IMG/VR virus record: IMGVR_UViG_2534681704_000006
Length of the DNA stretch: 31,458 bases
Source: a virus
Lineage: Duplodnaviria; Heunggongvirae; Uroviricota; Caudoviricetes
Reading direction: 5' to 3' (one strand)
Part shown: positions 4,895-30,492 of the stretch, piece by piece
Layout of the letters: every line of letters starts with the position of its first letter
Numbering within the stretch: position 1 is the first letter of the stretch
The notes under the pieces: model-generated
Database searches by the model: none
The model's input: only the letters and a program-made list of their open reading frames with translations
Told to the model about the DNA's origin: nothing
Made by a program: the position numbers and the translations under genes

Positions 4895-4903
4895 TGTGCT
4901 CCG
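4895..4903. repeat. 9-bp target-site duplication (GTGTGCTCC), left copy
   Basis: Same 9-mer directly abuts both IS1 termini. Confidence 0.85.
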
Positions 4904-4917
4904 GTAATGACTCCAAC

Positions 4918-5421
4918 TTATTGATAGTGTTTTATGTTCAGATAATGCCCGATGACTTTGTCATGCAGCTCCACCGATTTTGAGAACGACAGCGACTTCC
5001 GTCCCAGCCGTGCCAGGTGCTGCCTCAGATTCAGGTTATGCCGCTCAATTCGCTGCGTATATCGCTTGCTGATTACGTGCAGCTTTCCCTTCAGGCGGGA
5101 TTCATACAGCGGCCAGCCATCCGTCATCCATATCACCACGTCAAAGGGTGACAGCAGGCTCATAAGACGCCCCAGCGTCGCCATAGTGCGTTCACCGAAT
5201 ACGTGCGCAACAACCGTCTTCCGGAGCCTGTCATACGCGTAAAACAGCCAGCGCTGGCGCGATTTAGCCCCGACGTATCCCCACTGTTCGTCCATTTCCG
5301 CGCAGACGATGACGTCACTGCCCGGCTGTATGCGCGAGGTTACCGACTGCGGCCTGAGTTTTTTAAATGGCGGAAAATCGTGTTGAGGCCAACGCCCATA
5401 ATGCGGGCGGTTGCCCGGCAT
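4918..5421 (-). CDS. insB: IS1 transposase InsB (expressed as InsAB' by -1 frameshift)
   Basis: 167-aa product matches recalled IS1 InsB. Confidence 0.93.
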
Positions 5422-5615
5422 CCAACGCCATTCATGGCCATATCAATGATTTTCTGGTGCGTACCGGGTTGAGAAGCGGTGTAAGTGAACTGCAGTTGCC
5501 ATGTTTTACGGCAGTGAGAGCAGAGATAGCGCTGATGTCCGGCAGTGCTTTTGCCGTTACGCACCACCCCGTCAGTAGCTGAACAGGAGGGACAGCTGAT
5601 AGAAACAGAAGCCAC
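5340..5615 (-). CDS. insA: IS1 InsA (transposition repressor / N-terminal part of InsAB')
   Basis: 91-aa product [43 protein letters not shown]... matches recalled InsA. Confidence 0.93.
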
Positions 5616-5670
5616 TGGAGCACCTCAAAAACACCATCATACACTAAATCAGTAAGTTGGCAGCATCACC

Positions 5671-14372: not shown

Positions 14373-15332
14373 ATGATAAAAAAACCTGTGATTGGAATCA
14401 GCGGTTGTTTGGCCGGTTCTGCTGTTCGTTTTGATGGTGGTCACAAAAGAGCTGACTTTTTAATGGACAAATTAGTGGAATGGGTAACATTCAGACCAGT
14501 ATGTCCGGAAATGGCTATAGGGCTGCCAGTTCCGCGTCCTGCTCTACGTCTTGTGCGCTCGATGCAAGGAAATATACGGATGTGTTTCAGCCACGACCAG
14601 AATGAGGATGTGACAGAGAGAATGACAGAGTTTAGTCGTTCTTATATGGACAAATTAAAGGATGTATCGGGGTTTGTGGTTTGTGCTAAATCTCCCAGCT
14701 GTGGCATGGAGCGCGTGCGTGTCTATGATGAAAATGGTAATCGAGGTCGTAAAGATGGAGTGGGACTATTTACGAGCACTTTGATGGAAAAGTTTTCCTG
14801 GCTACCGGTTGAAGAGGATGGGCGATTACATGATCCAGTGCTTCGTGAGAATTTTGTTGAAAGAGTTTTTGCTTTGCATGAGCTCAATCACCTTTACAAG
14901 GAGAAATTATCAAGAAGAGAGTTATTAGCTTTTCATAGTCGTTATAAGCTTCAGTTGTTGGCGCATAGTCAGGCAGGCTATAAAGATATGGGACCATTTG
15001 TGGCTGCAATACACGAGTGGGCGGACCTTGAATCATACTTTGAGGTGTATCGTGATAAGCTGATGGCGATTCTCAGAAAACCTGCATCACGTAAAAATCA
15101 CACGAATGTGCTGATGCATATACAGGGGTATTTTAGTAACTACTTAAGTACACGCCAGCGTAAAGAGTTGAGCGAGGTTATACTTAACTATCGTTCTGGC
15201 ACATTACCTCTTCTTGCGCCGTTGACTCTGCTGAAGCATTATCTGGGTGAGTATCCTAATGATTACTTGCTTACACAGAATTACTTCGATCCCTATCCGG
15301 ACGAACTGGCTCTAAGACTGATGGTAAATTAA
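14373..15332 (+). CDS. DUF523/DUF1722 fusion protein (TudS-like [4Fe-4S] desulfidase-type N-domain)
   Basis: 319-aa ORF; N-terminal GISGCLAGSAVRFDGGHK motif with further conserved Cys residues, typical of DUF523; C-terminal half resembles DUF1722 (YbgA-like); domain assignment from memory. Confidence 0.65.
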   Translation: MIKKPVIGISGCLAGSAVRFDGGHKRADFLMDKLVEWVTFRPVCPEMAIGLPVPRPALRLVRSMQGNIRMCFSHDQNEDVTERMTEFSRSYMDKLKDVSGFVVCAKSPSCGMERVRVYDENGNRGRKDGVGLFTSTLMEKFSWLPVEEDGRLHDPVLRENFVERVFALHELNHLYKEKLSRRELLAFHSRYKLQLLAHSQAGYKDMGPFVAAIHEWADLESYFEVYRDKLMAILRKPASRKNHTNVLMHIQGYFSNYLSTRQRKELSEVILNYRSGTLPLLAPLTLLKHYLGEYPNDYLLTQNYFDPYPDELALRLMVN

Positions 15333-15674
15333 TTGTATGCGATATCATCCAAAAGGATGAGTTCCTGCATGCAGGATATTTACAATCGTAAAAACTACAC
15401 TATGATACCCAGAGTGTCAGTTTGTATAAAAACTCTGTTTACGCTGAAGAAACAATTGAGATGCAACTTAAAGTTGGTAAACATGCCAGTCAAAATATAT
15501 AATATTATGATTCCACGCAGCTATATATAATATAACAGATTGGTTTAATAATTTGTCTTTGTGAGTTAAATACATAATTTTATACTTGTGATGCAATGAA
15601 ATTTTCCTTATTGTTGAACTGGCGAATATTGATTTTCCACCTATACTTACCTGGTGTAACCCCAATGATATCAG

Positions 15675-16415
15675 GTGGATAATATGCCATACATATGTTC
15701 TATCATTTTGGTGTTGAACTCGTTTGATGTCCGAATTGGTAAAGAAGATATTTTGTTTAAAAAAGGAAGTGCTGTTCTCATTGATTACAATTTAAAAGAT
15801 TTTTTTTCATCAAATATAGATCATGTAATGATCGTAGATGTTGAAGAGAAAACAGTTAATGATTTCTTTAAAAGCAACACACTCTCACCTTTTTCTGTAA
15901 GAAGGTTTTATCCGGCATACTTGATGGTGGAATGTGAAGATTTTTCATTGTTAAAGAACTTGATTGCATGCTTGAATTGTGATGGCAGAACTGTGGATTT
16001 TGTTAGAAATCAAATATCACTTGCATGTCTTGCTATCTTATCTTCAGAGAAAATAGTGCAAAGTTTTTTATTTGGATGTCTTAATAGTTTAGGAAGTAAA
16101 GTTAAGGCTATTATTCACACGGATATATCTGCAGCATGGAGACTTTGTGATATATCTTCAAGACTGTATCTGAGTGAAAGTCTGTTAAAAAGAAAATTAA
16201 AGCACGAAGGCTTATCATTTAGTAAGTTAATTCTTGAAGAGCGAATGGTGATGGCGGAAAGGTTATTAAGCTACAATTTATATTCTGTTGGAAAAGTTGC
16301 TGAGATATGCGGTTATGAAAACACGTCATATTTTGTAAGTGTTTTCAGAAGGTATTTTGGTGTTCCTCCCCATCAATATTCATCAAGATTTTTTTTAGAA
16401 AAAGACATGATGTAA
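15675..16415 (+). CDS. AraC/XylS-family transcriptional regulator (AT-rich, AppY/GadX-like architecture)
   Basis: 246-aa ORF with C-terminal dual HTH AraC signature (...LKHEGLSFSKLILEERMVMAERLL...VGKVAEICGYENTSYFVSVFRRYFGVPP); very AT-rich gene and flanks. Confidence 0.8.
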   Translation: MDNMPYICSIILVLNSFDVRIGKEDILFKKGSAVLIDYNLKDFFSSNIDHVMIVDVEEKTVNDFFKSNTLSPFSVRRFYPAYLMVECEDFSLLKNLIACLNCDGRTVDFVRNQISLACLAILSSEKIVQSFLFGCLNSLGSKVKAIIHTDISAAWRLCDISSRLYLSESLLKRKLKHEGLSFSKLILEERMVMAERLLSYNLYSVGKVAEICGYENTSYFVSVFRRYFGVPPHQYSSRFFLEKDMM

Positions 16416-16602
16416 CGTGATGCGTTTTAATGATTTTGTAATTTTCGTATTTGATAATTGTATGATGCTTTCAGCTACGCCAGAATAATCGCGGCGTTTT
16501 TCTTTTTGAATAGATGTTCAAGCCTTACGCTAATGTAACTTCTATACCTTTCCTCTTCGTTCCGAACCGTGTACACCATCCGTTATTTGCGGAGGTGAGG
16601 CT

Positions 16603-16818
16603 ATGAAATCCATGGATAAGTTAACAACGGGTGTCGCCTATGGCACCTCAGCAGGTAGTGCCGGTTACTGGTTTTTACAGCTGCTCGATAAAGTCACGCC
16701 CTCACAGTGGGCAGCAATAGGTGTGCTGGGTAGCCTGGTATTTGGCCTGCTGACGTACCTGACAAACCTTTATTTCAAGATTAAAGAAGATAAGCGCAAG
16801 GCTGCGAGAGGTGAATAA
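16603..16818 (+). CDS. S: class II holin, phage 21 S-type (pinholin) with dual start motif MKSM
   Basis: 71-aa product [31 protein letters not shown]...[13 protein letters not shown] matches recalled S21 holin/antiholin. Confidence 0.9.
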
Positions 16819-17315
16819 TGCCTCCATCATTACGAAAAGCCGTTGCTGCTGCTATTGGTGGCGGAGCAATTGCTATAGCATCAGTGTTAATCACTGGCCC
16901 AAGTGGTAACGATGGTCTGGAAGGTGTCAGCTACATACCATACAAAGATATCGTTGGCGTATGGACTGTATGTCACGGGCATACAGGAAAAGACATCATT
17001 CCCGGTAAAACGTATACCGAAGCAGAATGCAAAGCCCTCCTGAATAAAGACCTTGCCACGGTAGCCAGACAAATTAACCCGTACATCAAAGTCGATATAC
17101 CGGAAACAACGCGCGGCGCTCTTTACTCGTTCGTCTATAACGTGGGCGCAGGCAATTTCAGAACATCTACTCTTCTTCGCAAAATAAACCAGGGCGATAT
17201 CAAGGGCGCATGTGACCAGCTACGTCGCTGGGCATACGCTGGCGGTAAGCAATGGAAAGGCCTGATGACTCGTCGTGAGATTGAGCGTGAGGTCTGTTTG
17301 TGGGGGCAACAATGA
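16818..17315 (+). CDS. R: SAR endolysin (lysozyme, R21/RrrD-like)
   Basis: 165-aa product; Gly/Ala-rich N-terminal signal-arrest-release segment ([18 protein letters not shown]); catalytic E-x8-D-x5-T spacing ([17 protein letters not shown]); start overlaps holin stop. Confidence 0.9.
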
Positions 17316-17776
17316 GCAGGGTAACCGCGATTATCTCCGCTCTGGTTATCTGCATCATCGTCTGCCTGTCATGGGCTGTTAATCATTACCGTGATAACGC
17401 CATTACCTACAAAGCCCAGCGCGACAAAAATGCCAGAGAACTGAAGCTGGCGAACGCGGCAATTACTGACATGCAGATGCGTCAGCGTGATGTTGCTGCG
17501 CTCGATGCAAAATACACGAAGGAGTTAGCTGATGCGAAAGCTGAAAATGATGCTCTGCGTGATGATGTTGCCGCTGGTCGTCGTCGGTTGCACATCAAAG
17601 CAGTCTGTCAGTCAGTGCGTGAAGCCACCACCGCCTCCGGCGTGGATAATGCAGCCTCCCCCCGACTGGCAGACACCGCTGAACGGGATTATTTCACCCT
17701 CCGGGAACGACTGGTAATGATGCAGGCCCAACTTGAAGGTGCTCAGCAATACATAACCGAGCAGTGTTTAAAGTAA
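17312..17776 (+). CDS. Rz: Rz inner-membrane spanin
   Basis: 154-aa product with N-terminal transmembrane segment and coiled-coil; overlaps endolysin stop; contains the embedded Rz1 frame. Confidence 0.85.
17532..17717 (+). CDS. Rz1: Rz1 outer-membrane lipoprotein spanin (embedded in Rz, +1 frame)
   Basis: 61-aa ORF with lipobox (VVGC) and proline-rich body ([15 protein letters not shown]), fully embedded within Rz. Confidence 0.8.
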
Positions 17777-17913
17777 AATCTTAACTACAATATGATTCAT
17801 TTTGATGATTGTTTCATAAGGAACAGTGAAGTAAGATCTAAGAGGAGTTAAATTTTATACAGTATAATCATAATATTGCAGCAAGGTGGTTATAATTGAA
17901 AGAATATTTAGAT

Positions 17914-19371
17914 ATGAATACATCTCATGTAAGAGTTGTTACTCATATGTGTGGGTTCCTGGTTTGGCTCTATAGTCTTTCAATGTTGCCACCAATGGTT
18001 GTAGCATTGTTTTATAAAGAAAAAAGCCTGTTCGTTTTCTTTATAACTTTCGTTATATTTTTTTGCATTGGTGGCGGAGCGTGGTATACAACTAAGAAAT
18101 CTGGCATTCAATTACGTACCCGTGATGGGTTTATTATAATTGTAATGTTTTGGATTTTGTTTTCTGTTATTAGTGCATTCCCTTTATGGATTGACTCAGA
18201 ACTTAATTTAACGTTCATTGATGCTCTGTTTGAAGGGGTTTCTGGAATAACAACAACAGGAGCAACTGTAATTGATGATGTTAGTTCATTACCTCGGGCA
18301 TATTTGTACTATCGGTCACAGTTAAATTTTATAGGTGGTTTAGGAGTTATTGTTCTGGCGGTTGCTGTATTGCCATTATTGGGTATTGGTGGTACAAAGC
18401 TTTATCAGTCAGAAATGCCGGGGCCATTTAAGGATGACAAACTCACTCCCCGCCTGGCCGATACGTCACGGACACTGTGGATAACTTATTCTTTATTAGG
18501 TATTGCTTGTATTGTCTGTTATAGACTTGCAGGAATGCCTTTGTTTGATGCTATTTGTCACGGGATTTCCACAGTTTCGCTTGGTGGTTTCTCAACTCAT
18601 AGCGAGAGTATCGGATATTTTAATAACTATTTGGTTGAGCTGGTGGCTGGTTCTTTTTCCCTGCTATCGGCTTTCAACTTCACTCTTTGGTATATTGTTA
18701 TTAGCAGGAAAACGATAAAACCTTTAATCAGAGATATTGAACTTCGTTTCTTTCTGTTAATAGCCTTAGGGGTGATCATTGTTACCTCTTTCCAGGTCTG
18801 GCATATAGGTATGTATGACTTGCATGGAAGTTTTATTCATTCGTTTTTTCTTGCCAGCTCCATGCTCACTGATAATGGTTTAGCTACGCAGGATTATGCA
18901 AACTGGCCCACGCACACGATAGTGTTTTTGCTGTCGTCAAGTTTCTTTGGGGGATGTATAGGTTCAACTTGTGGTGGAATTAAGTCACTTCGATTTCTTA
19001 TACTTTTCAAACAAAGCAAACACGAGATAAATCAGCTTTCTCATCCCAGAGCGTTGTTGAGTGTAAATGTAGGAGGGAAGATAGTTACAGATCGTGTAAT
19101 GAGGTCTGTATGGAGTTTCTTTTTTCTTTATACTCTCTTCACGGTGTTTTTTATACTGGTGTTAAATGGTATGGGATATGATTTTCTTACATCATTTGCA
19201 ACAGTGGCTGCATGTATTAATAATATGGGATTAGGTTTTGGGGCTACTGCATCGTCATTCGGAGTGCTTAATGACATTGCAAAATATTTAATGTGCATAG
19301 CTATGATTCTTGGTCGCCTTGAAATTTATCCTGTTATTATATTGTTTTCAGGTTTTTTTTGGCGCTCCTAA
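17914..19371 (+). CDS. trkG: TrkG potassium uptake protein (TrkH family)
   Basis: 485-aa multi-pass membrane protein from MNTSHVRVVTHMCGFLVWLYSLSMLPPMVVALFYKEK...; matches recalled Rac-prophage TrkG; AT-rich. Confidence 0.92.
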   Translation: MNTSHVRVVTHMCGFLVWLYSLSMLPPMVVALFYKEKSLFVFFITFVIFFCIGGGAWYTTKKSGIQLRTRDGFIIIVMFWILFSVISAFPLWIDSELNLTFIDALFEGVSGITTTGATVIDDVSSLPRAYLYYRSQLNFIGGLGVIVLAVAVLPLLGIGGTKLYQSEMPGPFKDDKLTPRLADTSRTLWITYSLLGIACIVCYRLAGMPLFDAICHGISTVSLGGFSTHSESIGYFNNYLVELVAGSFSLLSAFNFTLWYIVISRKTIKPLIRDIELRFFLLIALGVIIVTSFQVWHIGMYDLHGSFIHSFFLASSMLTDNGLATQDYANWPTHTIVFLLSSSFFGGCIGSTCGGIKSLRFLILFKQSKHEINQLSHPRALLSVNVGGKIVTDRVMRSVWSFFFLYTLFTVFFILVLNGMGYDFLTSFATVAACINNMGLGFGATASSFGVLNDIAKYLMCIAMILGRLEIYPVIILFSGFFWRS

Positions 19372-19508
19372 TATATGGCTGATTTATAATTGTGAGTTTA
19401 ATATTATATTGACTCACTCATTGATCCAATACCTAACTTTACCAGCAACACCTCCGCCCCCAGTAGCACTGGCTGCTGGGGTGCGTTTTATTCATAAAGC
19501 AAGGCTGT

Positions 19509-20297
19509 ATGAGCGAGAAATTAAAGATAGTCTATCGCCCATTACAAGAATTGTCACCGTATGCGCACAACGCCAGGACGCACAGTACTGAGCAGGTGGC
19601 ACAACTGGTAGAAAGTATTAAGCAATTCGGCTGGACTAATCCGGTGCTGATTGACGAAAAGGGCGAAATTATTGCGGGTCACGGTCGTGTTATGGCGGCT
19701 GAAATGCTCAAAATGGATTCTGTTCCGGTCATTGTTCTGTCTGGCCTGACGGATGAGCAGAAAAAGGCGTACCGCCTGGCAGATAATCGCCTACCGATGA
19801 ATGCTGGCTGGGATGAAGATCTGTTGCGGATGGAGCTGTCGGACCTAATCAATGCTGATTTTGATGTCTCCCTGACAGGCTTCGGCCCGACAGAAATTGA
19901 TGAACTGTTGACGGATGTTTTGCCCGGTACAGGAAATAAGGAGGAGCCGTATACGACGAAAATTGATACGCCTGTTTATGAGCCGTCGGGCGGTAAACCG
20001 GATATCAGTGAACTGTACGACGATACGAAAACTCAGGAGCTGATCAGCCGGATACGTTCGGCGTCCCTTGAGCCTGATATTGAGAAATTCCTCCTGTGTG
20101 CGGCAGAACGTCACACGGTGTTTAATTTCAGCAGAATTGCGGACTATTACGCTCATGCCCCCGCTGAAATTCAGTGCCTTTTCGAGGAGTCGGCGCTGGT
20201 GATCATTGATTATCAGCAGGCTATTGAAAATGGATTTGTCCGAATGACGCAGCGCATGGTGGCGATCATGCATAGCGGGGAGGAGGAATATGCGTGA
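19509..20297 (+). CDS. ParB-like nuclease domain protein (YnaK-like)
   Basis: 262-aa ORF; N-terminus (YRPLQELSPYAHNARTHS...IIAGHGRVMAA) has ParB/Srx-type motifs; resembles recalled Rac YnaK but full length here. Confidence 0.75.
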   Translation: MSEKLKIVYRPLQELSPYAHNARTHSTEQVAQLVESIKQFGWTNPVLIDEKGEIIAGHGRVMAAEMLKMDSVPVIVLSGLTDEQKKAYRLADNRLPMNAGWDEDLLRMELSDLINADFDVSLTGFGPTEIDELLTDVLPGTGNKEEPYTTKIDTPVYEPSGGKPDISELYDDTKTQELISRIRSASLEPDIEKFLLCAAERHTVFNFSRIADYYAHAPAEIQCLFEESALVIIDYQQAIENGFVRMTQRMVAIMHSGEEEYA

Positions 20298-21153
20298 TGA
20301 TTTTTGCGCCTTTATTCTGACTCACGGGCGACCGGACAAAGTTCTGACTTACCGGACGTTGCGTCGTGCTGGCTATACCGGGAAAATTTTTATCGTTGTT
20401 GATGATGAAGATAAGACACGGCATCAGTACATGGCTGAATTTGGTGAACAGGTGCTGGTATTTTCCAAAGCAGATATTGCCAGTCGTTTTGACGAAGCCG
20501 ATAATTTTGGTGACCGCCGCTCAATTTTTTACGCCCGTAATGCCTGTTTCGACCTGGCAAAACTGGTCGGGTGTAAATACTTCATTCAGCTCGATGATGA
20601 TTATCACGAGTTCCAGTTTCGGGTGGATCGCAACTATGACCAGGCCTATTTCCCGATAAGGAAACTGGATGCGATCCTTTCTGAAATGCTGGCGTATTAC
20701 GAATCAATACCCGCGCTTTCCATCGCTATGTCGCAGGGCGGGGATTTTCTTGGTGACAATGGCGGCCATGCTTCGTGGGTGAAACGCAAGGCAATGAACA
20801 GCTTTATCTGTTCGGTTGATCGACCGTTCTCATTCATGGGGCGCATTAACGAGGATGTGAATACGTACACGAATCTCGGTCGCCGTGGTGAATTGTTTAT
20901 GACGATCGGTGCTGTCCAGTTAGGGCAGAAACAGACGTAGAAAAACAGCGGCGGAATGACCGAGCTGTATCTGGATTCCGGGACCTACGTTAAAAGTTTT
21001 TATTCCGTCATGTATGCGCCGTCGTGCGTAAAAATCTCACTGATGGGCGCCAGCCATAAACGCATTCACCATCAGGTCACCTGGAACAACGCTGCAGTAA
21101 AAATCCTTCACGAAAAATACAGGAAGAAGACACCCTGCATATTAATGGGGTGA
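20290..21153 (+). pseudogene. YdaY-like gene interrupted by a single in-frame TAG (20938..20940); possible DxD-type transferase
   Basis: ORFs 20290..20940 and 20956..21153 are in the same frame, separated only by TAG plus 5 codons; 8-nt overlap with upstream ParB-like gene; contains DDD motifs (VVDDEDK, QLDDDYHEF). Confidence 0.5.
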
Positions 21154-21156
21154 CAA

Positions 21157-21408
21157 ATGATTCCGTATTCGAAAGTCGAGTCTCTGGCAGCGTGCCGGAT
21201 GACTGCACAACAAATCGCTGACGTACTGGATGTTGATCTGAACCGACTGAAAGAAAATCGGGAAGCAATGACAAATTTTTACGCGTCCATCCGTAAGGGC
21301 AGAGCGAAAGGTGAAGCCGAGCTACGGGCGGCATTGTTTAAGCTTGCCAGAAAAGGGGATGCCTTTGCCCTGCGCGAACTACTCAGGGTGGATAAAAATC
21401 AGGACTAA
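21157..21408 (+). CDS. small hypothetical protein upstream of terminase
   Basis: 83-aa ORF tightly packed between the interrupted gene and terS; no recognised family. Confidence 0.45.
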   Translation: MIPYSKVESLAACRMTAQQIADVLDVDLNRLKENREAMTNFYASIRKGRAKGEAELRAALFKLARKGDAFALRELLRVDKNQD

Positions 21409-21411
21409 CTG

Positions 21412-22506
21412 ATGAGCAGACCGGACTGGGGGGCGTTGCAGCAGGAGTATATTGCTGAATACACCCGCTCCGGTATATCTCCGGTGGCATGGTGTGAAGC
21501 AAGGGGACTGAATTACGCAACAGCCCGTCGTTACATCAAAAAACCTCCGAAAAATGCGCAGACAGAAATGCGCAAAACTGCGCAAAAAAGTGCGCAGAAA
21601 AAATCTGCGCAGACTGCACAAAAGCGGAACGGAAAATCTCAGGAAAAAAAGCCAGTATCCGATGCGTACCTGAATGAGGGCGATGCGGAAGAAATTTCGT
21701 TCTGTCCCGATGAATTCGGCGTTTCTGACCAGCAGGCGAAATTCGCAATGCTGGTTGCCCAGGGGAAAAAACTCGTTGAGGCATATCGCCTGGCAGGATA
21801 CGAGTCAGAGGGGAATGCGGCCTACGTAACCGCCAGCCAGCTCCTAAGAAATCCTAAGGTTTTTCGTGCTATCAGCTACTTCCGCAATCAGTACCAGAAA
21901 CGCTATACCGCAGACCTGGATTTACTGGTGAGTCAGTTGATGGCCATTGTCCAGGCCGACCCCAATCAGTTGGCACAATTTCGCCGTGTTAACTGCCGTT
22001 ATTGCTGGGGCGAGAATCATCACTACCAGTGGCGCGATATAGCAGAATTCGATAAGGCAGCGGCGCAGGCCTCCAGAGATGGCAAACCCGAGCCGGAATA
22101 TGGTGGCCTTGGCTTTGTTGATAACGCCATACCCAATCCGGACTGCCCGAAGTGCTGCGGTGAGGGAACGGGGCAGCTTTATATGGCTGATACCACTCTG
22201 CTTGATGGGGATGCGCGGCAATTATATGCAGGGGCAAAGCTCGGAAAATTTGGTGTTGAGATCCTGCTGGAGGATAAGGCTGCCGCCCGGCGTGAATTGT
22301 TGCGTTTGCTTGCTGCTGGCGGGGCTTTATGTGCAGATAAGCGGCTACAGGAACTGGAAATTGAACGGCGCAGAATGGAAAACCAGAAGCTGCGCAAAGA
22401 GATCGAAACGGTGGAGGATAATGAACATCCCCAACCTGTTGCGATCAATATTAATGTGGTTGATGCCAGAGTAAGGAGTGATGAAGATGATCTCTCCGAC
22501 GCTTAA
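21412..22506 (+). CDS. terS: terminase small subunit (TerS)
   Basis: 364-aa ORF directly upstream of and overlapping the terL-like ORF; N-terminal HTH-like segment and central terminase-small-like region (KFAMLVAQGKKLVEAYRLAGYESEGNAAYVTASQLLRNPKV). Confidence 0.65.
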   Translation: MSRPDWGALQQEYIAEYTRSGISPVAWCEARGLNYATARRYIKKPPKNAQTEMRKTAQKSAQKKSAQTAQKRNGKSQEKKPVSDAYLNEGDAEEISFCPDEFGVSDQQAKFAMLVAQGKKLVEAYRLAGYESEGNAAYVTASQLLRNPKVFRAISYFRNQYQKRYTADLDLLVSQLMAIVQADPNQLAQFRRVNCRYCWGENHHYQWRDIAEFDKAAAQASRDGKPEPEYGGLGFVDNAIPNPDCPKCCGEGTGQLYMADTTLLDGDARQLYAGAKLGKFGVEILLEDKAAARRELLRLLAAGGALCADKRLQELEIERRRMENQKLRKEIETVEDNEHPQPVAININVVDARVRSDEDDLSDA

Positions 22507-23281
22507 TGTGCCTCAGGCGCGATTTCTTTCAATGCCCCACAAATTTAAAGCCTATGTCGCTGGTTTTGGCTCGGGTAAAACATGGATTGGGTGTGGTGGC
22601 ATATGCAAGGGGATTTGGGAACATCCTGGTATAAATCAGGGATATTTTGCGCCAACGTATCCCCAAATTCGCGATATTTTTTACCCTACAGTGGAAGAAG
22701 TTGCTGCTGACTGGGGATTGAATGTAAAAATTAATGAGGGAAATAAAGAGGTTCATTTTTATTACGGACGTCAGTATCGGGGAACCACTATCTGCAGATC
22801 GATGGAGAAGCCGCAAACGATCGTCGGTTTCAAAATTGGTAATGCGCTGGTGGATGAACTGGACATTTTGCCGAAGGAAAAAGCCAGAACAGCGTGGCGC
22901 AAGATAATTGCGCGTATGCGTTATAAGGTTGATGGACTTCGCAACGGTATTGACGTTACAACCACGCCGGAAGGATTCAAATTTGTCTACGAGCAGTTTG
23001 TTAAAGCCGTGCGTGAAAAAACAGAGCTGGCCTCACTGTATGGTCTGGTGCAGGCATCTACTTTCGATAATGAAAAGAACCTGCCAGCAGATTACATTCC
23101 TTCGCTTCTTGAGTCATACCCTCCAGAGCTGATTAAAGCCTATCTTCGAGGACAGTTTACTAACCTGACAAGTGGTACTGTTTACCATCAGTTTGACCGG
23201 AAACTGAATAATTGCGAAGAAGTGGAGCAGCCAACCGCGCTGCTATTAACAGCATGTTTACCAGGCTCTCCGGAGAGCTGA
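22478..23281 (+). pseudogene. terL: terminase large subunit, N-terminal ATPase fragment only
   Basis: Walker A (VAGFGSGKTW) and Walker B (ALVDELD) motifs; ORF ends after 267 aa where the frame changes into a head-morphogenesis-like fragment; nuclease domain absent. Confidence 0.65.
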
Positions 23282-24000
23282 ACGAGCTGGCAGTTTATGA
23301 GGCTGGTTATCAGTTAAGTCTGTTTGATTCTCTGCTACCTGATTTTGTTGCTGATGTTCACCCTCTGGTTGGTATCTCACCTGATGCACTTTATGCCGCG
23401 GCAATGGCGCGACCATTCCAGGGACGACTGCTCAGTGAGTGGGCCTCAGATCTTGAGGCGGATCGGCTCAGACGCATAACAAATACGGTGCGTCAGGGTT
23501 TTTTGTTGGGGGATACCAATGAGCAGATCGCAAGAAAAATTCGGGGACATGTCAGTAAGGGATTTCAGGATGGTGCATTGCAGATGAGCCGGGCTAATGC
23601 GGCCAGCATTGCAAAAACAGCGGTTGGACATCTTGCTGCTACTGCCCGTGAGAGTTTTGCCAGCGCGAATAATGATTTGATTAAGGGTAAGCAATGGTTA
23701 TCAACGCTTGATAATCGTACTACGCCACAATGTCGAATCAGGGATCGCCTCAAATATACGCTGAATAATAAACCTGTAGGTCACAGCGTGCCTTATTTGC
23801 AGGGGCCGGGAAAAATTCATTTCTGCTGCCGCTCAACGGAAACGTTCATTCTGAAATCAGCGAAGGAACTGGGTATTGATGTTCGTGATATTTCCCCGGC
23901 TGAGCGGGCCAGCATGGATGGCGTGGTGGCCGGAGATACAACCTACAGGGAATGGTTTTTGCGTCAGCCTTACACCAGACAAAAACAGATTGTGGGGGAA
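23212..24000 (+). pseudogene. head morphogenesis protein fragment (SPP1 gp7 / Mu F-like)
   Basis: ORF without plausible start or ribosome-binding site in a different frame from terL; residues resemble minor head morphogenesis family (assignment from memory, moderate); runs into J-homologous sequence. Confidence 0.45.
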
Positions 24001-25829
24001 ATCCGGTCAGCGTGGAGGTTCAGTCCGTCACCGACGGCGTGAAGGTGAAAGTGAGCCGTGTTCCTGACGGCGTTGCCGGATACAGCGTGTGGGGGCTGAA
24101 GCTGCCGACGCTGCGCCAGCGCCTGTTCCGCTGTGTGAGTATCCGTGAGAACGACGACGGCACGTATGCCATCACTGCCGTGCAGCATGTGCCGGAAAAA
24201 GAGGCCATCGTGGATAACGGAGCGCACTTTGACGGCGACCAGAGCGGCACGGTGAATGGTGTCACGCCGCCAGCGGTGCAGCACCTGACCGCAGAAGTCA
24301 CCGCAGACAGTGGGGAGTATCAGGTGCTGGCGCGCTGGGACACGCCGAAGGTGGTGAAGGGTGTGAGCTTTATGCTTCGCCTGACCGTGGCCGCCGATGA
24401 CGGCAGTGAGCGGCTGGTCAGCACGGCCCGGACGACGGAAACCACTTACCGCTTCAGGCAGCTGGCGCTGGGGCGTTACACGCTGACGGTCCGGGCGGTA
24501 AATGCCCGGGGACAGCAGGGCGATCCGGCGTCGGTATCGTTCCGGATTGCCGCCCCGGCAGCGCCGTCGCGGATTGAGCTGACGCCGGGCTATTTTCAGA
24601 TAACTGCCACGCCGCATCTTGCGGTTTATGATCCGACGGTACAGTTTGAGTTCTGGTTCTCGGAAACGCGGATTACCGATATCAGGCAGGTTGAAACCAC
24701 AGCCCGCTACCTTGGCACGGGGCTGTACTGGATAGCCGCCAGTATCAATATCAAACCGGGCCATGATTATTACTTTTATATCCGCAGTGTGAACACCGTT
24801 GGCAAATCGGCATTCGTGGAGGCCGTCGGTCGGGCGAGCGATGATGCGGAAGGTTACCTGGATTTTTTCAAAGGCAAGATAACCGAATCCCATCTCGGTA
24901 AAGAGCTGCTGGAAAAAGTTGATCTGACGGAGGATAACGCCAGCAGACTGGATGAGTTTTCGAAAGAGTGGAAGGACGCTAACGATAAATGGAATGCCAT
25001 GTGGGGCGTCAAAATTGAGCAGACCAAAGACGGCAAACATTATGTCGCGGGTATTGGCCTCAGCATGGAGGACACGGAGGAAGGCAAGCTGAGCCAGTTT
25101 CTGGTTGCCGCTAACCGTATCGCGTTTATTGACCCGGCAAACGGGAATGAAACGCCGATGTTTGTGGCGCAGGGCAACCAGATATTCATGAACGACGTGT
25201 TCCTGAAGCGCCTGACAGCCCCCACCATTACCAGCGGTGGCAGTCCTCCGGTATTTTCCCTGACATCAGACGGAAAGCTGACCGCTAAAAATGCGGATAT
25301 CAGTGGTAGTGTGAATGCGAACTCAGGAACGCTCAACAATGTCACGATTAACCAGAACTGTACGATTAAGGGCATGCTGGAGGCGACCCAGGTCAGAGGG
25401 GATTTCGTTAAAGCTGTATCAAAAGCCTTCCCGAAAAAAGTCGGTACGTGGGGTAACACGGAAACACCAAACGGTACGGTTACAGTCACCATCAGCGATG
25501 ATCATAACTTTGACCGCCAGATTATTATTCCGCCCATTATTTTTAACGGTATAGCGTATGACGATCCGGGGAGCGGAAATAACCCAGGAGGCACGCGATA
25601 CACGGGTTATGGTTTTGAAGTTCGCAAAAACGGCGTATTAATCGCATCCAGAGAAACTAAAGGGGCCATTCCCGGTAGTTACAGTGCAGTTATTGATATG
25701 CCTAGTGGTGGTGGTAGCGTCACTCTGGAGTTTAAGATTTTCCAGAAAGGCAATCAGGGGGCAGGCAATATCACCGACTGTACGGTGATTGTGACCAAAA
25801 AAGCCGCTTCCGGCATCAGTATTCGTTGA
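24001..25829 (+). pseudogene. J: tail tip fibre / host specificity protein J, C-terminal half only
   Basis: From about 24001 the translation ([43 protein letters not shown]...) matches the C-terminal part of recalled lambda J; no N-terminal half upstream. Confidence 0.85.
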
Positions 25830-29402: not shown

Positions 29403-29936
29403 ATGATGCACTTAAAAAACATTACTGCTGGCAACCCTAAAACAAAAGAGCAATACCAGCTAACAAAGCAATTTAACATCAAATGGCTTTATTCAGATGA
29501 TGGAAAAAACTGGTATGAGGAACAAAAGAATTTCCAGCCAGACACTTTGAAAATGGTCTATGACCATAACGGCGTTATTATTTGTATTGAAAAGGATGTT
29601 TCAGCAATTAATCCAGAGGGTGCAAGCGTCGTTGAATTACCTGATATTACAGCAAATCGCCGGGCTGATATTTCGGGGAAATGGATGTTCAAAGATGGCG
29701 TAGTGATAAAGCGAACTTATACCGAGGAAGAGCAGAGGCAACAAGCGGAAAATGAAAAGCAAAGCCTGTTGCAACTTGTCAGGGATAAAACCCAGCTATG
29801 GGACTCACAGCTACGGCTGGGCATCATTTCCGACGAGAATAAACAAAAATTAACCGAGTGGATGCTCTATGCGCAGAAAGTCGAATCTACAGACACTTCC
29901 GGCCTGCCAGTAACGTTTCCCGAACAACCAGAATGA
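29403..29936 (+). CDS. tfa: tail fibre assembly protein Tfa
   Basis: 177-aa product [40 protein letters not shown]... typical Tfa/U family, immediately after stf. Confidence 0.85.
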   Translation: MMHLKNITAGNPKTKEQYQLTKQFNIKWLYSDDGKNWYEEQKNFQPDTLKMVYDHNGVIICIEKDVSAINPEGASVVELPDITANRRADISGKWMFKDGVVIKRTYTEEEQRQQAENEKQSLLQLVRDKTQLWDSQLRLGIISDENKQKLTEWMLYAQKVESTDTSGLPVTFPEQPE

Positions 29937-29964: not shown

Positions 29965-30492
29965 TTACTCTGGTTTTTGTGGCCATTCAGGATTTGCCGT
30001 ATCCACACGGCTGACCAGAACACTGTAGCGTTCCCATGCTTCCAGTCGTGTGCGTTCCTCGTCTGTTGCCATATTCAGCCTGACAGCGCGTTCCAGCGGT
30101 TGGATGACTGATTCAGCTTCGAAAAGCAATGCGGCCTTTTGTGATTCGGCCTGTTGTTGTTGCTCGTCTGCCGTATAAATCCGTTTAACCACAGCTCCGT
30201 CCCTAAACATCCACTTACTGGAATCATCAGCGCAGCGGTTGGCTGTAATATCTGGAACCTCAACGACGCTATAACCTTCAGGGTTAAGCGTGGAGGCATC
30301 TTTGGTGATGGCGACAATAATATTATTTGCATCGTAAACAATCTTTATTGTGTCTGGCTGAAAGTTTTTCACTTCCTCATACCAGTTTTTTCCGTCTTCG
30401 GACCATAACCAGATAACATCAAAATTCTTTGTTAGCTGATATTGTTCTTTTGTTTTTGGATTTCCAGACTTAATATTTTTTAAATGCTGCAT
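29965..30492 (-). CDS. alternative tail fibre assembly protein Tfa' (inverted orientation)
   Basis: 175-aa product [40 protein letters not shown]... paralogous to the + strand Tfa. Confidence 0.85.

Follow-up and report, generated by a model that had tools for sequence, protein, structure and literature searches.

The window analysed here is a 31,458-nucleotide stretch of Caudoviricetes DNA (IMG/VR record IMGVR_UViG_2534681704_000006) in which a ParB-like gene and a glycosyltransferase gene interrupted by a stop codon lie between a trkG moron and the terminase genes (Table 1). The two reading frames overlap by 8 nt (ATGCGTGA), the ATG at 20290 falling within the stop region of the ParB-like gene, and a Shine-Dalgarno sequence (GAGGAGGA, positions 20280-20287) stands ahead of that ATG. 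Inspection of the sequence and its ORFs bears out this overlap, and also the split of the downstream gene into 216- and 65-residue ORFs of one frame by a TAG codon, all as given in the original prediction. Past the TAG the frame is open from position 20941 through to the TGA at 21151-21153. The DDD/DxD-like motifs that the same prediction had noted are present as DDED at residues 38-41 and DDD at residues 102-104. Upstream of the pair a hairpin with a stem of 10 pairs, 7 of them GC (CCCCAGTAGCACTGGCTGCTGGGG), is followed by TGCGTTTTAT, and the ParB-like start lies 17 nt downstream; this structure is the putative terminator of the trkG moron. The pair had been described as lying between trkG and terS, directly upstream of the terminase. 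Its location at the packaging module stands, with the correction that a gene of 83 codons intervenes. The product of that gene is probably an HTH/TerS-accessory protein, and orthologues of 84-85 residues occupy the equivalent position in Salmonella, Pantoea and Serratia loci.

Table 1 Coordinates of the features at the ParB-glycosyltransferase locus of the window
Feature	Position	Strand	Remark
Terminator-like hairpin and T-run 3' of the trkG moron	19458..19491	+	consensus match alone
ParB-like ORF	19509..20297	+	262 aa
TAGT-family (GREB1-related) GT-A glycosyltransferase gene	20290..21153	+	premature stop; 287 aa were codon 217 Gln
216-aa ORF	20290..20940	+	ends at TAG 20938-20940
DDD (Asp102-104), DxD metal/NDP-sugar motif of GT-A fold	20593..20601	+	
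Premature TAG in place of CAG (Gln217)	20938..20940	+	
65-aa ORF	20956..21153	+	ATG-initiated, same frame as the 216-aa ORF
GGGG tract fixing the C-terminal end (287 aa)	21147..21150	+	alignment
83-aa gene in the glycosyltransferase-terS gap	21157..21408	+	phrog_309 'terminase small subunit', E 2.5e-22
Small terminase subunit	21412..22506	+	Pfam Terminase_2, E 1.9e-9; RefSeq product name
Large terminase, N-terminal fragment	22478..23233	+	Pfam Terminase_6N

Family searches for the glycosyltransferase were run on an intact allele that is 99% identical to the window copy. Residues 8-222 of this allele matched the Pfam TAGT family (PF20691) with a score of 124.8 bits against a cutoff of 27.5 (E 5.8e-36), which places the protein within the family, and the match to phrog_842 had an E value of 1.3e-103. 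PGAP names the product 'GREB1-related protein'. The DDD triplet is invariant among 31 homologues and sits at the end of strand 97-102 in a structural model, the C-terminal part of which is of low confidence. On family match and model, the partner of the ParB-like gene is a TAGT/GREB1-related glycosyltransferase with a predicted GT-A fold and a DxD motif. A function that had been given as unknown is thereby narrowed to a family tied to phage DNA hypermodification. A PDB sequence search with the glycosyltransferase profile gave nothing meaningful. The PADLOC defence-system models gave no match to the enzyme, and the role in anti-phage defence that had been offered as one option found no backing there.

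In a library clustered at 50% identity the TAGT family is large, 1,500 representatives passing E <= 0.001 and 717 passing E <= 1e-30. Lengths of 280-299 residues were found in 101 of the 142 newly listed cluster representatives, and nearly all of them align to the end of the profile. Among the long representatives there are TAGT members fused to SAM-methyltransferase, sulfotransferase, P-loop or second TAGT domains, others having the look of read-through artefacts; a ParB-TAGT fusion was sought among these proteins and none was found. The window copy departs from the uninterrupted ORF of family-typical length at codon 217, where the TAG stands.

Residues 1-140 of the ParB-like protein form a ParB/Srx N-terminal domain carrying a GHGR variant of the GERR box. 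The Pfam ParB_N model (PF02195) gave 29.4 bits against a cutoff of 26.3, so that the domain assignment holds, and the protein matched phrog_620 (E 2.5e-90) and Spo0J/ParB structures (E values from 1.8e-5 for Spo0J, 1vz0, to 2.3e-4). Conservation extends over the full length of 23 homologues of 257-292 residues and is strong also in the C-terminal half (residues ~145-262), which the AF2 model renders as helical with low confidence. The Pfam scan found no domain after ParB_N, and no HTH was recognised in the protein. The domain being a ParB/Srx N-terminal fold, and our search having found no evidence of nuclease function, we dropped the 'nuclease' label of the original prediction. The module is shared with phage DNA methyltransferases. 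Homology to the N-terminal module of these enzymes covers residues 1-141 (phrog_498, E 3.7e-51), and residues 10-141 match the N-terminus of the PADLOC MTase_II model (E 1e-38), this ParB-type N-terminus being all that the protein matched among the PADLOC models. When phage genomes were searched by tblastn, 430 records matched, many of them annotated as DNA methylase.

Two other assignments for the ParB-like protein were considered and rejected. A chromosome- or plasmid-partition ParB acting as a CTPase clamp was ruled out by four observations: the box reads AGHGRVMAA against the GERRxRA CTP-binding box, with two of the three arginines gone; the HTH is lacking; no ParA is annotated in the prophage; and the NCBIfam partition models all scored far under their cutoffs. 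A dioxygenase hidden in the C-terminal half was rejected because the all-helical model, of low confidence though it is, misfits a double-stranded beta-helix.

The stop codon was then placed against intact alleles. In the induced phage vB_EcoS-473R12 and in strain FDAARGOS_497 the aligned codon is CAG, so that a single C to T change accounts for the TAG. The frequency of the stop was taken from a 63-nt probe centred on the codon, which matched 907 E. coli genomes. The match was exact in only 12 of these and the remainder differed by at least one base. CAG was present in all of the latter whose sequence was read, and the fetched loci comprised 65 with CAG and 2 with TAG. Among 79 loci of the E. 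coli type the ORF is of 310 residues in 74, 312 in one, 287 in one and 216 in two, both of the last being records picked for their identity to the window. Gln217 is invariant in the 31 homologues, at identities down to 59%, and with it begins the stretch of strongest conservation in the family, TQxNxGGMTELYxxxGTYVKSFYS, which is followed by R258, H260/H261 and W265. Motifs that lie 3' of the TAG (GGMTxLY, GTYxKxFY, R258, H261 and W265) are conserved across phyla. Hence the window gene cannot encode the conserved C-terminal third of the enzyme.

Alignment over the TAG was the check proposed in the original prediction, with homologues that stop at that point named as the outcome that would speak against a disrupted gene. 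The homologues instead read Gln and continue through some 70 more conserved residues. The alternative of two genuine genes, a 216-residue protein and a separately initiated protein of 65 residues, is therefore hardly credible: an ATG does lie 15 nt past the stop (position 20956, Met223) with a weak GGCGGA ahead of it, but this Met223 belongs to the invariant GGMT motif, and across many phyla the homologues are single polypeptides of 280-300 residues. Even less credence attaches to a sequencing or assembly error, for which we found no point in favour. The window DNA is 100% identical over 2021 nt in at least 11 independent complete genomes, in addition to the 12 exact probe matches, and the TAG is thus no sequencing error. 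Several countries are represented among the carriers of the identical DNA, and the sources are poultry, pig, dog, calf, frog and waste water.

A functional TAG, suppressor-dependent or subject to programmed read-through such that the full-length enzyme is still made, had also been put forward. The base after the stop is A, and TAGA is not the strongest termination context of E. coli; moreover, the frame stays open for 71 further codons. Against this, the stop is limited to those 12 genomes, of which the ones examined show 100% identity across 2 kb, it is absent from every homologue inspected, no tRNA gene was found in the window, and the element is visibly decaying (below). Since the stop is rare, is not conserved and has no tRNA gene beside it in the window, nothing suggests programmed read-through, and we regard a functional TAG as very improbable. 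Some natural read-through of the TAG-A context, at a low level, or re-initiation from Met223 may nevertheless occur.

In RefSeq the glycosyltransferase gene of DNA identical to that of the window carries the pseudogene flag 'frameshifted; internal stop'. The internal stop agrees with our reading. As the alleles compare, the TAG is a recent nonsense mutation of the CAG codon of Gln217 and the glycosyltransferase gene of the window is a pseudogene, the outcome that the original prediction had listed as a recent nonsense mutation in one gene coupled to the ParB-like gene at the packaging module. The relatives have a sense codon at the site, conserved sequence is lost, and the prophage has other lesions, as expected of a nonsense pseudogene in a decaying element, and we found no weighty evidence to the contrary. 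The pseudogene status is already annotated publicly and the family is already in Pfam; what happened to the gene is ordinary decay.

The 'frameshifted' part of the RefSeq flag has a different origin. Alignment traced it to the GGGG tract at 21147-21150, where the usual E. coli allele has GGGGG. GGGG is the minority form (25 of 882 genomes). The GGGGG allele gives a 310-residue product whose frame extends 72 nt into the following gene, and its 23-residue tail (VTNDSVFESRVSG...) is absent from other genera, being the sequence of the next gene in another frame. The GGGG allele gives 287 residues and ends a few residues past K279, the last conserved position, an end point common to homologues from Salmonella, Klebsiella, Enterobacter, Serratia, Pantoea, Yersinia and many other phyla. 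The stop of the GGGG allele lies 3 nt ahead of the ATG of the 83-residue gene, comparable to the 4-nt stop/start overlap in Salmonella. Thus, the second lesion that RefSeq records is probably not a lesion. Given that GGGG produces the family-typical end, the TAG came about on a GGGG background, and no other change in the gene is clearly inactivating. Strain YJ6 has GGGG together with CAG and hence an uninterrupted 287-codon ORF, and this too is annotated as 'frameshifted'. Since the yardstick in RefSeq is the E. coli-specific 310-residue allele, the last 23 residues of which are not conserved, and GGGG restores the end typical of the family, 287-residue alleles such as that of YJ6 are probably functional genes wrongly flagged as pseudogenes.

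The surrounding prophage shows lesions of its own. The window belongs to the lambdoid prophage lineage of strain WP8-S18-CRE-02, where the prophage lies beside ybhB-bioA and is 100% identical to window positions 16555-23233. BLAST comparison with a fuller prophage, L004, aligned window 16555-23233 to L004 17156-23834 and window 23233-24006 to L004 25998-26771. At 23233 a deletion junction fuses terL, at about codon 250, to the minor-head gene, so that the remainder of terL, all of the portal gene and the beginning of the minor-head gene are gone. Beyond a second junction, near 24006, lie the C-terminal part of the J tail-tip gene and then lom, stf and tfa (a head-to-tail deletion). An IS1 is present in the window at 4902-5670. 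Other TAG carriers have different lesions, an IS1 in the tape-measure gene in one and an IS1 after a truncated terL in another. The E. coli prophage of the window is a remnant no longer under selection for virion production. Taken together, we consider it highly probable that the locus is a two-gene cassette whose TAGT copy was killed by a recent CAG to TAG change within a remnant, the pair in its relatives being putatively DNA-glycosylating.

To see where intact relatives of the pair occur we relied on a scan of contigs from one genome per species, which gave 45 loci at 39-99% identity; a scan of viral contigs gave no diversity, nearly all its matches being E. coli prophages of near-identical sequence. 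The hosts span Enterobacterales, Bacteroidota, Firmicutes, Desulfobacterota, Kiritimatiellae, Cloacimonadota and Saccharibacteria. Neighbours were counted within 10-kb flanks in the 43 of the 45 loci where the ORF caller recovered the glycosyltransferase gene. In 38 of these 43 a ParB-like gene lies directly upstream on the same strand, and the genes found downstream of TAGT in diverse loci encode a small HTH/TerS-like protein, TerL and portal. The Salmonella pair has an 8-nt overlap as well, a soil MAG has a ParB gene followed by two tandem TAGT genes, and homologues of both proteins co-occur on contigs throughout the two homologue lists.

Given the family, we looked for an enzyme that could supply a modified base. 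No TET/JBP dioxygenase or thymidylate-synthase-like gene is annotated in the complete prophage, and its hypothetical proteins gave no such Pfam match. Among the neighbours in the 43 loci there was no recurrent dioxygenase cluster, although rare single-locus cases may exist; C5-methyltransferases occurred in 5 loci and SNF2-N6/N4 methyltransferases in 6. The glycosyltransferase gene thus does not adjoin a TET/JBP (5mYOX) gene or other source of hydroxymethyl-pyrimidine. Without a TET/JBP or thymidylate-synthase-like enzyme in the prophage or among the recurrent neighbours, the usual acceptor of the family, 5hmC or 5hmU, is not supplied. On the evidence of these gene neighbourhoods, the ParB-TAGT pair is a conserved cassette that precedes the terminase genes and has no dioxygenase partner, in phages of Proteobacteria, Bacteroidota, Firmicutes and other phyla.

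For the intact pair we propose, with about even confidence, that it glycosylates DNA with the assistance of ParB at about the time of packaging. The pair would be transcribed together with the late and packaging genes. The ParB-like protein, with its nucleotide-binding-fold domain, helical C-terminal domain and no HTH, would engage double-stranded phage DNA and enable its partner enzyme, much as ParB homologues activate phage thymine dioxygenases and as suggested also by the fusion of the same ParB_N subfamily to phage DNA methyltransferases. The DxD glycosyltransferase would then move a sugar from an NDP-sugar to phage DNA, before or during packaging, and the sugar on progeny DNA would guard against host nucleases. 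We base this proposal on the TAGT family and fold, on the strict association of the enzyme with a ParB_N subfamily that elsewhere forms fusions with DNA methyltransferases, on the place of the cassette in the packaging operon and on published ParB activation of phage dioxygenases. In that work, ParB homologues that lack a DNA-binding domain activated phage 5mYOX (thymine dioxygenases) specifically on double-stranded DNA, and the commonest 5mYOX neighbours were glycosyltransferases, ParBs and terminases (PMC13229309). Phage GT-A enzymes are known to put sugars on DNA (10.1101/2023.12.21.572611), and an earlier proposal has ParB directing modification enzymes during packaging (PMC8256090). We counted against the mechanism, as its main weakness, that the usual acceptor is not supplied, and further the lack of a ParB-TAGT fusion, the degenerate GERR box (GHGR) and the low-confidence C-terminal parts of the models.

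It is also conceivable, though unlikely, that the intact cassette modifies no DNA, the glycosyltransferase acting on a protein or other non-DNA acceptor and the ParB-like protein serving as a packaging accessory or nuclease. GREB1, the eukaryotic TAGT relative, has been reported to glycosylate a protein, which counts for such an acceptor, and the position of the cassette next to the terminase genes suits a role in packaging. The missing hydroxymethyl-pyrimidine source points the same way, and about 65% of phage glycosyltransferase contigs likewise have no such source and were judged less obviously DNA-modifying (10.1101/2023.12.21.572611). For a clade lacking a 5hmC- or 5hmU-making enzyme, the proportion of such orphan contigs keeps a non-DNA acceptor a real rival. 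However, identities of 45-57% across phyla argue for a universal acceptor such as DNA and not a host-specific protein. The strict pairing with the ParB_N subfamily noted above also weighs against it, and the TAGT fusions to SAM-methyltransferase, sulfotransferase and P-loop domains fit the tailoring of sugar adducts. A more specific form of the DNA glycosylation proposal is that the intact ParB-TAGT pair could be a self-sufficient, dioxygenase-independent system that glycosylates a canonical or universally available position of DNA at packaging, with ParB assisting; this we advance only tentatively and think rather improbable. If it were true, dioxygenase-independent ParB-TAGT glycosylation would add to phage DNA a chemistry that has yet to be described there, and the window copy would be a dead example of the system.

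The amber codon itself carries little weight, since it adds just another lesion to a prophage remnant and has already been flagged publicly. The correction of the RefSeq 'frameshifted' label and the dioxygenase-less cassette are the more useful by-products of its analysis. The ParB-TAGT-terminase order is strikingly conserved across phyla without an enzyme that produces hydroxymethyl-pyrimidine. Intact E. coli prophages and induced phages (e.g., the vB_EcoS-473R12 group) offer a tractable system for finding the targets of 'orphan' phage glycosyltransferases, and the cassette also bears on whether ParB-like proteins activate enzymes besides dioxygenases.

Several known systems bear comparison with the cassette. 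The T4 alpha- and beta-glucosyltransferases have a GT-B fold and a substrate, 5hmC, that is incorporated pre-replication, and we know of no ParB partner for them. They are phage enzymes that sugar DNA and so evade restriction (10.1101/2023.12.21.572611), a role like the one proposed for the intact cassette. The TET/5mYOX-associated glycosyltransferases (PF20691, with the kinetoplastid base-J glucosyltransferase and GREB1 as relatives) share with the window gene the family match, the GT-A fold and the DxD motif. The clade of the window gene is also phage-borne, with ParB and terminase neighbours; it differs in having no dioxygenase or hydroxymethyl-pyrimidine source nearby, and the window copy differs further in stopping at residue 216. 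YnaK of E. coli K-12 is a ParB-like remnant beside trkG in the Rac prophage, and PGAP gives the name ynaK to the window-type gene, which also follows trkG. The K-12 protein is reduced to the N-terminal part, ~87 residues, against the 262 encoded by the full gene of the window. In some records PGAP annotates just the first 258 nt of an intact ParB-like ORF.

The ParB activators associated with 5mYOX, such as ParB176, resemble the ParB-like protein in their small size, in a nucleotide-binding-fold domain at the N-terminus that is joined to a C-terminal domain, and in lacking an evident DNA-binding HTH, and in both cases the gene adjoins one for a DNA-modification-type enzyme in a phage (PMC13229309). 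The likeness is one of architecture, and the partner in the window is a glycosyltransferase, not a dioxygenase; with no 5mYOX present, the ParB-like gene has no cognate 5mYOX beside it. Fusions of ParB_N to DNA methyltransferases (phrog_498; PADLOC MTase_II) have an N-terminal module homologous to residues 1-141 of the ParB-like protein, whereas in the window this module belongs to a separate protein that is translationally coupled to the glycosyltransferase.

RefSeq labels as 'frameshifted' the alleles of the glycosyltransferase gene that carry GGGG near its 3' end (window 21147-21150; the strain YJ6 locus, L089, 1091-2022). It is the GGGG allele that gives the 287-aa, family-typical end of the protein, and GGGGG, the majority allele in E. 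coli, adds a 23-aa non-conserved tail that overlaps the next gene. Alleles combining GGGG with CAG at codon 217 are probably functional genes that have been wrongly called pseudogenes.

The upstream ParB-like gene has an annotation problem of its own. In some records PGAP marks, within an intact 789-nt ORF, only the first 258 nt (comparison loci L001, 3110-3367, and L003, 1110-1367) and labels this stretch 'ynaK, incomplete, missing C-terminus'. The identical DNA is annotated as full-length in other records (WP_001752316.1), and the short annotation looks like an artefact in which the name was taken over from the truncated YnaK of K-12. In Shigella flexneri SFBU0723 (L091) the ParB-like gene is split into ORFs of 129 aa and 168 aa and the glycosyltransferase ORF is unbroken, the reverse of the window as to which cassette gene is broken.

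In some distant loci (L007, 1357-3938; L135) a tandem pair of TAGT genes follows a single ParB gene, and one locus (L130) has the repeated order ParB-TAGT-ParB-TAGT. Such tandem or repeated genes suggest successive sugar additions or paralogous specificities. Fusions were found among the TAGT cluster representatives (P0248, P0254, P0277, P0293, P0263, P0294 and P0298). Some have a class-I SAM methyltransferase or sulfotransferase domain joined C-terminally. In others the N-terminus bears a P-loop (GxxxxGKS) domain, roughly 180 aa long, which gave no Pfam match.

Features of the window outside the ParB-TAGT pair
Feature	Position	Strand	Detail
IS1 copy	4902-5670		95% identical to IS1 copies in the NZ_AP022245 related prophage
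trkG potassium-transporter moron	17896-19371		between lysis genes and ParB-TAGT pair
Strong terminator-like hairpin	19458-19491		3' of trkG moron
Deletion junction	23233		terL N-terminal part fused to middle of Mu-F-like minor-head gene; portal gene gone
Deletion junction	near 24006		minor-head fragment joined to C-terminal 625 aa of J-type tail-tip protein
Tail-fibre-assembly gene (lambda gpK / Caudo_TAP)	29403-29936	+
Tail-fibre-assembly gene (lambda gpK / Caudo_TAP)	29965-30492	-

Late transcription could get to the packaging genes only by reading through the hairpin that follows trkG. In the fuller related prophage L004, the stretch flanked by Q and the lysis genes holds two morons (15221-16180), a lipocalin gene and a YbgA-type gene with 2-thiouracil desulfurase and DUF1722 domains.

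Both deletion junctions lie within 22478-24042, and the window lacks all head genes and most tail genes. Relative to the prophage of NZ_AP022245, the IS1 copy breaks the early region. The two tail-fibre-assembly genes lie face to face 3' of an stf-like tail-fibre gene, and beyond them one more minus-strand ORF reaches the end of the window, an arrangement typical of invertible host-range segments.
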